A stretch of DNA of 14,733 nucleotides from UHGV virus genome UHGV-1964037. One strand, given 5' to 3'. This document shows, in pieces, positions 4,297 to 12,555 of the stretch. Numbering within the stretch: position 1 is the first letter of the stretch; every line of letters starts with the position of its first letter. The notes beneath the pieces are model-generated. The model was not told where the DNA came from and searched no databases. It was given only the letters and a program-made list of their open reading frames with translations. This DNA is from a virus. A program made the translations under genes and the position numbers.

Positions 4297-4353
4297 GTCC
4301 ATAAGAAAGCCCCTCCGGAGAGGGGCTGGAGAGTGGCGCTATGTGCCATTGCA

Positions 4354-4375
4354 TGGTGCCGGGTGCCTCCCGGTG
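4354..4375. repeat. 22-bp element TGGTGCCGGGTGCCTCCCGGTG, with an exact reverse-complement copy at 14559-14580
   Basis: Exact 22/22 match in inverted orientation about 10.2 kb away. The minus-sense reading CACCGGGAGGCACCCGGCACCA holds three GGCACC hexamers and a CCGGG/CCCGG hairpin. Confidence 0.9.
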
Positions 4376-4644
4376 AGTTCAGTATCAGCACCTGAACCCG
4401 CACAGAAAGGATAAGGGTCGGTGACAAAACACCAGTTGCTGATTGCCCCTCCGCACAGGGGGATTCACCATGCCAGTTTCTTTTAACAAACTCCCCGCAA
4501 ACCAGACAACAGTCAACCGCCTGAATTGTGAGGTATTTAAAAATTTCAACGGGTAACTGATACCCTGCTAATCGCCTGATGCTTTCTTTTTCAGCAACGG
4601 GGAAGCAACAACCACCACACCCACCAGCCGCCCATTTACCACAA

Positions 4645-4995: not shown

Positions 4996-5055
4996 TTTAA
5001 GTTGTGTGGCGTAGTAACCACTCTTAACATACTGACATACTTTTTGCGGACCGCG

Positions 5056-5448
5056 CTAATCATTTTTTACTTTTTTGGGCAGCCAGTCGTCCATCTCCAG
5101 CCTTACACCCAGCATCGACAGACATCCGTCAATAAATCCTTCAGCAATCTGCATCTCAATTCGTATTGCCTTTTCGCTCTTCTTTCTTGTTCTGGCAATC
5201 TGCCTTTTTGATATGCGCAGCAGATAATGAGCTACCAGCAGCGAATACTCGTCCGGTTTTTTCTTCTTCAGGCGCGTAAGGCAGTTTTCGATGATAAGGC
5301 CGTCATCATCGCTGCAGGCCGGGCGAGGTTTAGCGGTGGATGGTAAAAGGCCTTTAAATCCAGCAGCTATCGGAGAATAGTCCACCCCGGTGTTACCACT
5401 TGCCGCCCATGCCCCCCAGCGTTCAAGAACCATCTGAATATCACGCAT
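5056..5448 (-). CDS. Q: late-gene antiterminator Q (Phage_antitermQ family, QuuD-like)
   Basis: ATG at 5446-5448 with GGAG RBS. Product MRDIQMVLERWGAWAASGNTGVDYSPIAAGFKGLLP...RLKKKKPDEYSLLVAHYLL...GVRLEMDDW matches the short E. coli prophage Q family (N-terminal MRDIQMVLERWGAWAA, C-terminal RLEMD, from memory). Positioned upstream of the late/lysis genes. Confidence 0.8.
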   Translation of the reverse strand: MRDIQMVLERWGAWAASGNTGVDYSPIAAGFKGLLPSTAKPRPACSDDDGLIIENCLTRLKKKKPDEYSLLVAHYLLRISKRQIARTRKKSEKAIRIEMQIAEGFIDGCLSMLGVRLEMDDWLPKKVKND

Positions 5449-10578: not shown

Positions 10579-10799
10579 GCCACACCTCCCAGACGCTTAA
10601 ACATTTTTCCGGAGCAAAAGGCTATAAGCGGCATACTGACGCGGTAATTACGGCCCAGCGGTTCACAAATCACCTTCTGACATTCACGGTCAACCAGGCT
10701 AACACGTAGAACATGCCCTGCAGGCGTGGTGTACCACTGACCCGGACGAGGACAACGGAAAGTATGATTGGTAAACCGTTTGAAAATATTCCGGATCAT
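10575..10799 (-). CDS. hypothetical Cys-containing small protein, 74 aa
   Basis: ATG overlaps the Rha-domain gene stop (ATGA). Product MIRNIFKRFTNHTFRCPRPGQWYTTPAGHVLRVSLVDRECQKVICEPLGRNYRVSMPLIAFCSGKMFKRLGGVA has 4 Cys (possible metal-binding). Confidence 0.4.
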   Translation of the reverse strand: MIRNIFKRFTNHTFRCPRPGQWYTTPAGHVLRVSLVDRECQKVICEPLGRNYRVSMPLIAFCSGKMFKRLGGVA

Positions 10800-11944
10800 T
10801 TGCGCCCCCTTACCTCTGAAGGGTTCAGCGACAAATTTATGAGACTGGCCAGTAGCGCCGCGTCGTTGATGCGGTCATACAGACTTACAGCCAGCGGGGA
10901 TTCGGCTTTTGCCAACATGGGATAAAGCTGCTGCAGCCAGACCTTGTGGATTACCGACAGGTGGGAGTAAAGCACGCTGGCGTTATCTGCGGCATCGCTC
11001 AGCGTGGATGGCTTTGAAAGCAGTTTTTCCATCTGGTTAAAGGCATTGATGTATGCCTCTTTGAACTGGGCAGCACGTTTACCCGTGAAACCCATAGCAA
11101 GAAACGCAAAGCCGTCGCGGGTTATTTGATAGCAAGGTAGTTTGCGGCCTGTGCAATCGGTGTAATCACTCACCGAAAAATTGCGGGCAGTGAATGATGC
11201 GGAACATTCAAGCGTGCGGATCTTTTTCAGTACATCGTCATGACGTTTGGAGAAGAAGTTGGCAACAGCCAGGGATGAAGTAACAGCCTGACCATCAACG
11301 ATGGCAATTTCAGGTTGAGTGAGGGTTGGGATCGTAGCCATGATGGCAGCCTCCGTATGCAATGGATAACTTCCACCACCGGAAACGCCAATTTCGCTGG
11401 TGGTGAACTGAGCAGGGTTGGCGTAACCGGCGCATACGGAAACCGGCGCACCTTTCGGTGCCCCCACCCAGCCCACCATAATTTGGGTATAGCTGAGTTG
11501 TAGCAACAAAAAAGACGCTAACGCGCCAATTGTCGCCGTATGCAATTCCAGGACGCCAATCCCGACACCCGCTTTATAAGGTGCCTGAACAGTGTAACGT
11601 CCCGGAATGGCAGAATCAATGTGCTGGTGGTCCTTCACACTCAACAAAATCACGCCTGAATTTCCACAAAGGACTAAAGCACTCATGCTGGTAGTCTTTG
11701 CGAAGATAGATAACGCGCTGTGTTTCTGGCTCCCAACGAATAACATGAACATAAAGTCCTCTTCCGTCACGAAACCAGCGGTTAAGTTCCTGCACAACTC
11801 GCCCCCCACAGTCAGGTAAAGTTCTCTGTGGTTACTTACAGCCAGGTGATTTGGTAATCTGCATTCATGCCGTAACAACAGGTGTTCAGCGACGCTGACC
11901 ACCAGCTGTTGCGACAAACGGTTATTTGCCGTTAAACTATTCAT
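10796..11944 (-). CDS. Rha-domain phage regulatory protein with about 200-aa in-frame N-terminal extension of unknown function
   Basis: C-terminal 181 aa (from ATG 11339-11341, preceded by GGAGG) MATIPTLTQPEIAIVDGQAVTSSLAVANFFSKRHDDVLKKIRTLE...ITRDGFAFLAMGFTGKRAAQFKEAYINAFNQME is a clear Rha (Phage_pRha) domain. The frame stays open for a further 201 codons upstream to an ATG at 11942-11944 that overlaps the CII-like stop (ATGA). A 600-nt open frame by chance is unlikely, so the long form is annotated; the true start is uncertain. Confidence 0.5.
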   Translation of the reverse strand: MNSLTANNRLSQQLVVSVAEHLLLRHECRLPNHLAVSNHRELYLTVGGELCRNLTAGFVTEEDFMFMLFVGSQKHSALSIFAKTTSMSALVLCGNSGVILLSVKDHQHIDSAIPGRYTVQAPYKAGVGIGVLELHTATIGALASFLLLQLSYTQIMVGWVGAPKGAPVSVCAGYANPAQFTTSEIGVSGGGSYPLHTEAAIMATIPTLTQPEIAIVDGQAVTSSLAVANFFSKRHDDVLKKIRTLECSASFTARNFSVSDYTDCTGRKLPCYQITRDGFAFLAMGFTGKRAAQFKEAYINAFNQMEKLLSKPSTLSDAADNASVLYSHLSVIHKVWLQQLYPMLAKAESPLAVSLYDRINDAALLASLINLSLNPSEVRGRK

Positions 11945-12555
11945 GCGTTAGTTTCTCCACAACCAGAAGCAATCGACGCCACGACGCCCGGAGCTGCACA
12001 CTCGCGGGCGTTACTATTTTCTGGAGCGCAGAAGATTTTGTAGACCAGTGCTGCATGCTCCTGGAGCTTCGAAATTGAGAGGTACAGCTCGTCGTTAATT
12101 GCTGTCTTCTCATGCGGTTCCACTACACCGTCTTCGATTGCTGAACGAATCTGTCTGGAATAACTGCCGATCTGTTCAATGACTTCCAGCAGACGCTGGT
12201 TAATATCGGCGTTGTCCACATCCTCGACGTCAGGAAGAGACACAAAGACGCCATTTGCAGACTGCGCCACAGCGTCAGCAATGAAGTGAGTTCCACCAGC
12301 ACGTTGCAAAATCATTGCCCATCCCAGCGGGAAAATCTGATCGCCATCGGCACGAAGGCGGTTAAATAATGCGTTTTCTGTTACATCCAGCCAGTCAGCT
12401 GCTTCAGCGTAACCACCCGGCAACGCTGCGATAGTTTTTCTGACAGCTTTCACGTACCACTCAGGCTGTTTTTCTACTTTCCAGTGATGCTTACCCACGG
12501 TTAGCCTCATCGTTCTGTGGTTTCTGTTAATCGATTTATCCATTAGATTTTTCAT
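11941..12555 (-). CDS. CII-like early regulatory protein (position-based; possibly phage CP76-type CII family)
   Basis: ORF immediately downstream of cro, about 204 aa from ATG 12553-12555 (alternative ATG 12541-12543). Product ...WKVEKQPEWYVKAVRKTIAALPGGYAEAADWLDVTENALFNRLRADG... Function is inferred mainly from gene order. Confidence 0.35.
   Translation of the reverse strand: MKNLMDKSINRNHRTMRLTVGKHHWKVEKQPEWYVKAVRKTIAALPGGYAEAADWLDVTENALFNRLRADGDQIFPLGWAMILQRAGGTHFIADAVAQSANGVFVSLPDVEDVDNADINQRLLEVIEQIGSYSRQIRSAIEDGVVEPHEKTAINDELYLSISKLQEHAALVYKIFCAPENSNARECAAPGVVASIASGCGETNA

Follow-up and report, generated by a model that had tools for sequence, protein, structure and literature searches.

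Introduction

The described systems that come closest to the locus considered here are the RNA-based immunity regions of phages P4 and P1/P7 and the isrK region of prophage Gifsy-1. The Kil protein of P4 is a truncated in-frame product of eta, full-length eta being translated only from an upstream late promoter (PMC10111431, summarising Forti et al. 1999), and translation of eta is coupled to that of an alpA homologue and prevents termination (PMC10111431). In the isrK-orf45(STnc1160)-anrP region of Gifsy-1, the isrK terminator is leaky (PMC4825925); orf45 is translated and is needed for translation of AnrP, and its peptide is not conserved (Hershko-Shalev et al. 2016, PMC4825925). Here, we describe a related arrangement in the viral genome UHGV-1964037, of which a stretch of 14,733 nucleotides (nt), hereafter the window, was analysed. 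In this stretch, the gene for a Rha-family regulator is preceded in the same frame by 201 open codons.

We consider it likely that the 603 nt preceding the Rha start codon serve as the regulatory leader of an antisense-RNA immunity module of the C4/CI type, and do not encode an N-terminal protein domain; our confidence in the RNA-module reading of this extension is very high. An earlier, sequence-only reading of the window had found nothing recognizable in the N-terminal region, and had offered a two-domain protein with long and short isoforms, a recent gene fusion through loss of a stop codon, or an unusual coding arrangement as explanations. We found that the region does have matches: to the Pfam family Phage_ASH, to the isrK and C4 RNA families, to DUF4222 (in another frame) and to the start of YmfM of prophage e14.

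Layout of the Rha locus

The long open reading frame (ORF) occupies 10796..11944 of the minus strand and comprises 382 codons. Its ATG (11944..11942) overlaps the TGA of the preceding ymfL/CII-like gene in the context gcATGAat (overlap 11944..11941), with a GGAG 10 nt upstream, and its product begins MNSLT, like e14 ymfM. The internal Met is codon 202, with its ATG at 11341..11339, and is preceded by a GGAGG (11354..11350) and an 8-nt spacer. The sequence-only reading had reported the 201 open codons, the start on the CII-like stop and the internal ribosome-binding site (RBS), all of which we confirmed, whilst its position for the internal start, 11342, is one base off. From 5' to 3', the leader contains the ymfL-coupled ATG, the DUF4222 gene, a promoter-like element, the isrK-type RNA with its terminator, the C4-type RNA and the a2 and b2 target sites:

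10796..11944, minus strand: 382-codon 'eta-like' open frame, consisting of the leader, its embedded elements and Rha; open in 88 of 88 related loci
11796..11944, minus strand: 5' leader, codons 1-49; variable sites 15/19/22 by codon position, without a coding signature
11616..11795, minus strand: DUF4222 gene, 59 amino acids (aa), GTG start, out of frame with the long ORF; Pfam PF13973 (E 1e-13), phrog_1343 (E 4e-36), annotated by the Prokaryotic Genome Annotation Pipeline (PGAP)
11591..11619, minus strand: putative internal promoter-like element, TTGATT-17-TACACT, from the aligned upstream regions of modules
11508..11584, minus strand: isrK/seqA-type small RNA (sRNA); Rfam RF01394, 58.9 bits (gathering 50), E 1e-10
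11396..11483, minus strand: C4/CI-type antisense RNA; Rfam RF01695, 80.7 bits (gathering 45), E 7e-15
11477..11479, minus strand: in-frame AUG, codon 156, at the 5' end of C4; positional homologue of the first Gifsy-1 orf45 AUG
11385..11391, minus strand: target a2 (TTGGCGT), complementary to C4 a'
11350..11361, minus strand: target b2 (TGCATACGGAGG), complementary to C4 loop b'; includes the Rha Shine-Dalgarno GGAGG (11350..11354)
10796..11341, minus strand: Rha-family regulator gene, 181 aa, the nested short gene; TIGR02681 103 bits (cut-off 46), Pfam PF09669 Phage_pRha E 1.7e-30

isrK- and C4-type RNAs within the long frame

The isrK and C4 matches span codons 121-146 and 154-183 of the long ORF, respectively. 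Both lie on the ORF strand and both fall within the Pfam 'Ash' match, and the same pair of Rfam matches was obtained from five relatives and from P4. Members of the isrK family have two 5' hairpins and a Rho-independent terminator and are located upstream of a C4-like RNA, a description that the window element fits by its score above gathering and by its terminator. A terminator scan placed the intrinsic terminator in a GGCGC-GTTA-GCGTC hairpin (stem-loop 11514..11527) followed by six T residues at 11508..11513.

The C4 region has a minimum free energy of -45 kcal/mol (z -3.9) and its fold corresponds to the C4 family structure: a long closing helix, two internal hairpins, and two single-stranded elements, a' and b', that are complementary to flanking targets. 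The single-stranded joint a' (ACGCCAA, 11418..11424) is complementary to a2 (UUGGCGU), positioned 5-11 nt downstream of C4. Element b' (UUUCCGUAUGCG, 11431..11442) forms the 12-nt loop of the second C4 hairpin and is the complement of b2 (UGCAUACGGAGG); counting G-U pairs, complementarity between C4 and b2 extends over 15 nt. Further copies of the targets lie within isrK, where a1 (11553..11559) and b1 (11536..11544) are likewise complementary to joint a' and loop b'.

Covariation was assessed in an alignment of 13 diverse modules from E. coli, Salmonella and Citrobacter prophages, tandem second copies, Brenneria, Buttiauxella and a soil metagenome-assembled genome. The C4 helices were paired in 100% of cases, with nine compensatory pairs. 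Between loop and target, 7 of the 12 b'-b2 pairs had changed on both sides, and compensatory changes accounted for 4/5 pairs of a' with a2, 7/9 of b' with b1 and 5/7 of a' with a1, the last of these pairing in 100% of cells. Overall, two analyses found pairing in 92.6% and 95.1% of cells, with 24 and 12 pairs changed on both sides; the observed covariation scores were reached by none of 500 shuffles, and sliding the partners as a control gave pairing of 28-48%, compared with 93-95%. Judged by eye, the alignment contains at least eight co-varying 'specificity types'. As far as sequence comparison can tell, this combination of pairing and covariation is characteristic of immunity RNAs of the C4/CI type, as found in P1/P7 and P4.

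The promoter-like element ends 6 nt before the isrK +1 position and overlaps the stop codon of the DUF4222 gene. A TTGNNN-17-TANNNT motif occurs at the same place in every module, including modules with unrelated upstream DNA (TTGACC in L027b) and P4, and the element is the positional equivalent of P4 PLE (TTGCCT-17-TATAGT) and Gifsy-1 PisrK. We refer to it as a putative promoter, as read from the sequence.

It is highly likely that the conserved protein begins at codon 202. The Pfam Rha domain spans residues 222-307, and matches to Rha family profiles are confined to residues 202-382. Variation of the coding type also begins at codon 202, with 37/36/86 variable sites at codon positions 1/2/3 in the Rha domain and 20/17/49 in the C-terminal part. 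A sequence search of the PDB with Rha returned no matches. By analogy, Rha is most likely an antirepressor-type lytic regulator.

The frame is kept open and the peptide is not conserved

A species-genome scan with the extension as protein query yielded only five loci, and the diversity analysed here came from viral contigs and phage records. The 88 related loci encode 58 distinct proteins, and in all of them the frame runs uninterrupted from MNSLT to the gene's end. Amongst 57 distinct sequences, we counted variable sites at the three codon positions of the long frame over the first 640 nt. The counts were 15/19/22 for nt 1-147 and flat, at 46/56/53, for nt 330-603, the part that holds isrK, C4 and the target sites. 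On these counts, no selection at the amino-acid level is seen in the extension.

The reading frame itself is maintained. In nt 1-603 of the same sequences, frame 1 contains no stop positions, as opposed to 29 and 22 distinct positions in frames 2 and 3, of which 20 and 17 are polymorphic. Stops in frames 2 and 3 are found in every sub-segment, RNA genes included, save for the short interval nt 330-360. The five indels in the first 640 nt are all multiples of three. Retrieval by protein similarity could bias such a count, and it was repeated with eight sequences picked by DNA similarity alone, in which pairwise identity falls to 62% in the RNA region; the result was zero stop positions, versus 26 and 21. 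In dinucleotide-preserving shuffles of nt 4-603, the first 200 codons were stop-free in 7 of 20,000 cases (mean 7.6 stops), and the remaining two sense frames of the real sequence contain 11 and 7 stops. The 200-codon open frame exceeds chance. In tandem second modules, the ORF again starts at an ATG overlapping the preceding stop and is open through isrK and C4 into Rha, some modules being joined into ORFs of 598-821 codons.

These results bear on the explanations put forward earlier. A stop codon near 11342, which would have marked a separate upstream gene, was looked for in the relatives and none was found. The open frame is common to lineages down to 62% nucleotide identity, and to P4, which speaks against a recent fusion by stop-codon loss. 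The suggestion of an unusual coding arrangement describes the locus well: a conserved long frame contains a nested, in-frame short gene with its own RBS.

A nested DUF4222 gene in a second frame

The DUF4222 gene overlaps codons 50-110 of the long ORF and its protein is nearly invariant among relatives. Over nt 150-329, variable sites number 6/23/10 at long-frame positions 1/2/3, and long-frame position 2 is the third position of the DUF4222 codons; judging by this pattern, selection in codons 50-110 is acting on the DUF4222 frame. An AlphaFold2 model of the protein (predicted local distance difference test score of 85) is a small SH3/Tudor-like barrel, and a sequence search of the PDB gave zero matches. 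A run of six G residues before the GTG raised the idea of a programmed frameshift from the leader into DUF4222. This was rejected, as DUF4222 has its own start in all relatives; the leader and DUF4222 frames are fused in one database variant only (P0137).

Proposed mechanism and rival explanations

By homology with P1/P7 c4, P4 CI and Gifsy-1 IsrK, the internal promoter would fire constitutively, and most of its transcripts would end at the isrK terminator or be processed to stable C4. The C4 loops would pair with a2 and b2, blocking initiation at the Rha RBS, whilst IsrK would be a carrier of decoy or competitor copies of the targets, modulating the C4 block. The co-varying sequence types would make the resulting immunity phage-specific. 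The open frame and the example of P4 eta suggest what might happen upon derepression of the cro-ymfL early-right operon: ribosomes leaving ymfL would re-initiate at the ATGA and continue across the terminator, C4 and b2 into Rha. Such translation would prevent both termination and the antisense blockade, override immunity and give an N-terminally extended Rha. It would be the act of translating the frame that matters, not the encoded peptide. We regard this translate-through function, which the exclusion of stops from a frame of non-conserved peptide supports indirectly, as evenly poised between right and wrong.

Several points weigh against this interpretation. The frame through C4 has early stops in Brenneria, Dickeya, Buttiauxella, L009 and the second copy of L080, and in four of these five distant C4 modules it is not in phase with the gene that follows; an open in-frame leader thus characterises this clade and P4, and not all C4 systems. 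A few database variants (P0126, P0137) break the frame. The upstream ORF of Gifsy-1 stops at the anrP AUG, showing that in-frame fusion is not required for coupling. Frame-1 ribosomes would have to coexist with translation of DUF4222 over the same stretch, for which the model does not account. The promoter-like element matches the consensus at 8 of 12 positions, and a consensus scan upstream of isrK listed no promoter. For the window locus, we infer promoter use, termination, C4 processing and long-frame translation alike, and the antirepressor role of Rha is an analogy and not a result.

The annotation found in most databases implies a genuine two-domain protein, in which an 'Ash' domain is fused to Rha and the peptide of the extension is functional. 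There are thousands of 'ash family protein' or extension-containing Rha entries, the frame is conserved open, and Pfam Phage_ASH (PF10554) matches residues 117-212 with 63.3 bits against a cut-off of 26. However, the Ash match falls on the isrK and C4 RNA genes, selection on codons 50-110 acts in another frame, and the Ash stretch shows flat variation by codon position while the RNA helices and target pairings co-vary. The same model also matches the ORF historically described as the P4 'cI gene product' (E 4e-16), over the stretch with the Rfam C4/CI match, whereas the real P4 epsilon protein matches a different family, PF25738. A functional Ash domain therefore seems scarcely credible to us. 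Long and short isoforms, the other half of the two-domain suggestion, are plausible, given the precedents of P4 eta/kil and P1 Ant1/Ant2. The Ash match extends over 11309..11596 in the window and 8168..8584 in P4 (L095), and PHROGs 821, 995, 3960 and 6928 take in the same isrK and C4 stretch. From these alignments, the Pfam Ash family appears to be translated isrK and C4 RNA genes, specifying a non-conserved peptide when the frame is translated. In recent papers, Ash is still regarded as a protein domain whose function is not known, or its profile serves as a protein marker.

Two further explanations accept the RNAs but differ on the frame. The long frame could be an accidental by-product, with only the 181-aa Rha, DUF4222 and the RNAs being made. 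PGAP and one phage annotation call the shorter genes, the extension lacks amino-acid conservation and stop triplets are scarce in GC-rich structured RNA, but the complete lack of frame-1 stops holds inside the RNA genes too, where the other frames carry stops. The indels preserve the frame, the in-frame spacing to the Rha ATG is conserved, stop-free shuffles are rare, and the layout recurs in tandem copies and in P4; we judge an accident to be quite improbable. Alternatively, only a short ORF of the Gifsy-1 type might matter, with initiation at the AUG of codon 156 after IsrK has acted in trans, producing Rha with 46 additional aa and leaving the earlier part of the frame without a function of its own. 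The position of this AUG is indeed conserved, lying 138 nt (46 codons) upstream of the Rha ATG in the window and always 138 or 141 nt in relatives, and Gifsy-1 orf45 is translated and needed for anrP expression. Stops are also absent 5' of codon 156, though (nt 1-468: 0, versus 21 and 15 distinct positions, of which 12 and 10 are polymorphic), and the ATGA coupling is kept in every arrangement, the tandem copies and P4 included. This explanation, too, strikes us as rather unlikely, and we favour an RNA immunity leader whose whole frame is maintained for translation.

Remnants of the leader in E. coli K-12

In E. coli K-12, the ymfL-ymfM region of e14 shares with the window the ymfL end, the ATGA start, MNSLT and the nested DUF4222 frame. 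Unlike the window, e14 lacks the isrK-C4-Rha part, and its frame is cut off by a rearrangement junction after 112 codons; K-12 ymfM and the window have in common no more than the start and the stretch of DUF4222. The K-12 annotation includes the leader frame (ymfM, 112 aa, 'cell division inhibitor', SfiC) and not DUF4222. We found the un-annotated 59-aa DUF4222 ORF at NC_000913.3 1204001..1204180 (5002..5181 of our locus L003), where it starts with TTG after GAAGGAG and matches the Pfam family with E 9e-19. Differences between K-12 and the window are distributed 19/15/38 over DUF4222 codon positions 1/2/3, and amino-acid identity is 63% in the DUF4222 frame and 32% in the ymfM frame. By this comparison, K-12 ymfM is a 5' remnant of the leader frame.

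The study that attributed filamentation to ymfM cloned the DNA fragment into pBAD24, and the sections of that study covered here describe no frame-specific controls. A clone extending only as far as the ymfM stop codon would still include codons 1-53 of DUF4222. As conservation in K-12 follows the DUF4222 frame, the filamentation caused by the cloned fragment may come from DUF4222.

Taking these observations together with the mechanism above, we tentatively advance a joint proposal, which we hold to be somewhat less probable than its opposite. Its first part is that the whole 382-codon frame is translated after induction in a widespread lambdoid group, comprising e14, ST64B, mEp460, cdtI and many Shiga-toxin (Stx) prophages. 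Ribosomes coupled to the CII-like gene would open up the isrK terminator and displace C4 from the Rha RBS. Antirepressor output would then depend on translation of the early operon, and long and short Rha isoforms would be made. The second part is that the SOS-inducible inhibitor SfiC would be the un-annotated 59-aa DUF4222 protein, with YmfM being a leader-frame remnant only.

Genomic context and related modules

The window represents a lambdoid prophage early region, with a cI-like S24 repressor and a diverging cro-like gene followed by ymfL; PerC, Dam, RusA, KilA-N and DUF968 genes lie farther along. Two genes flank the long ORF directly:

11941..12519, minus strand: ymfL/CII-like regulator gene; Pfam Phage_CP76 E 1e-13, NCBIfam YmfL equivalog 167 bits
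10575..10799, minus strand: 74-aa gene (phrog_1153), which looks like a distant DUF4222 paralogue; its ATG overlaps the Rha stop (ATGA)

The extent of ymfL follows the 579-nt coding sequence called by PGAP in a 99.7% identical locus, the mechanical ORF reaching 12612. Database calls for the long ORF differ: in the 99.7% identical E. coli locus, PGAP annotates the DUF4222 gene and a 'Rha' from Met87, whilst the phage records of mEp460, ST64B (Sb41) and cdtI annotate the full 383-385 codons. The likeness of the 74-aa gene to DUF4222 comes from a match of DUF4222 to phrog_1153 (E 2e-3), a BLASTP E value of 0.04 and a common W[FY]..G..V.V...E.Q[KR]VI pattern. In some relatives, the 5' part of this gene continues in frame into a second isrK-C4-Rha module. 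Elsewhere in the window (4297..4502, minus strand), we found a full-length match to the STnc100 sRNA family (143 bits, gathering 47).

Tandem isrK-C4-effector modules with differing target specificities were seen in L010 (2646..3527), L027 (2330..3274) and L080 (1501..3297). The corresponding proteins include P0125, P0132 and P0145, some of them joined as single ORFs of 344-821 codons. Their arrangement suggests that tandem modules are stacked immunity cassettes.

The commonest relative of the window ORF is a 278-aa 'ash family protein' (P0003, P0064, P0090; loci L022-L069). Up to codon ~205, it shares 96-98% identity with the window; from there on, an unrelated 77-aa nested product (MATVPALSRLNDEDL...) takes over. 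The mosaic junction follows closely on the shared RBS and the first few codons, which points to recombination of the RNA cassette with different effector genes.

Implications

If the proposed reading is right, thousands of 'Ash family' and 'Ash-Rha' proteins of E. coli, Salmonella and Stx phages would be re-annotated as a translated immunity-RNA cassette. It would also give a large lambdoid prophage group a C4/CI-type RNA immunity layer in its early-right operon, with at least eight co-varying specificities; the Shiga-toxin phages, in which control of induction matters clinically, belong to this group. The locus may provide a natural case of a frame maintained for the act of translation and not for the peptide. 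Finally, our analysis raises doubt as to which product of K-12 ymfM inhibits cell division.

Comparison with known systems

The closest parallel is with the left operon of P4, where the nested eta/kil genes are accompanied by PLE, seqA, the CI RNA and seqC. The P4 ORF (8168..8767) starts at gcATGAtg over the stop of orf88, the alpA homologue, just as the window ORF starts at an ATGA, and it contains PLE, isrK/seqA (8692-8615) and C4/CI (8507-8420), in the order of the promoter-like element, isrK and C4 of the window. It ends with the nested 65-aa Kil, which has an RBS of its own and reads ...EAAI-MATTLTPSHPE, where the window reads ...EAAI-MATIPTLTQPE and has Rha in the kil position. In contrast to P4, the nested gene of the window is the 181-aa Rha, the leader is longer and contains the additional out-of-frame DUF4222 gene, and the context is a lambdoid early-right operon following a CII-like gene rather than the P4 satellite; the functions proposed for the window are predictions.

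The immI region of P1/P7 (a1 b1 - c4 - a2 b2 - icd - ant1/ant2) follows the same logic, with b2 over an RBS and an antirepressor-class output, and the P1 record annotates a1, b1, c4, a2 and b2 in the same order. P1 also has long and short in-frame antirepressor products, Ant1 and Ant2, and a small division-inhibitor gene, icd, in the operon. However, b2 of P1 masks the RBS of icd, to which ant is coupled, whereas b2 of the window lies immediately before the Rha start and covers the RBS of Rha itself. P1 Ant1 matches the Pfam family ANT (ANT/KilAC) and not Rha, and the small gene of the window lies upstream of the RNAs. DUF4222 was considered as an analogue of icd, but P1 Icd and DUF4222 have no similarity (E 3.3) and the idea is positional only.

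In both Gifsy-1 and the window, isrK is followed by an ORF that crosses the C4-like RNA, conserved in nucleotides and variable in peptide, and then by an antirepressor-like gene. Whilst orf45 of Gifsy-1 ends at the anrP AUG (AUGA), the window frame has no stop, is fused to Rha and is 155 codons longer upstream; the Gifsy-1 module follows antQ and the window module a CII-like gene. The window thus differs from P4 eta/kil and from its C4/CI-isrK/seqA kin in having Rha as the nested gene, an out-of-frame DUF4222 gene, a lambdoid context and a fused orf45-like segment.

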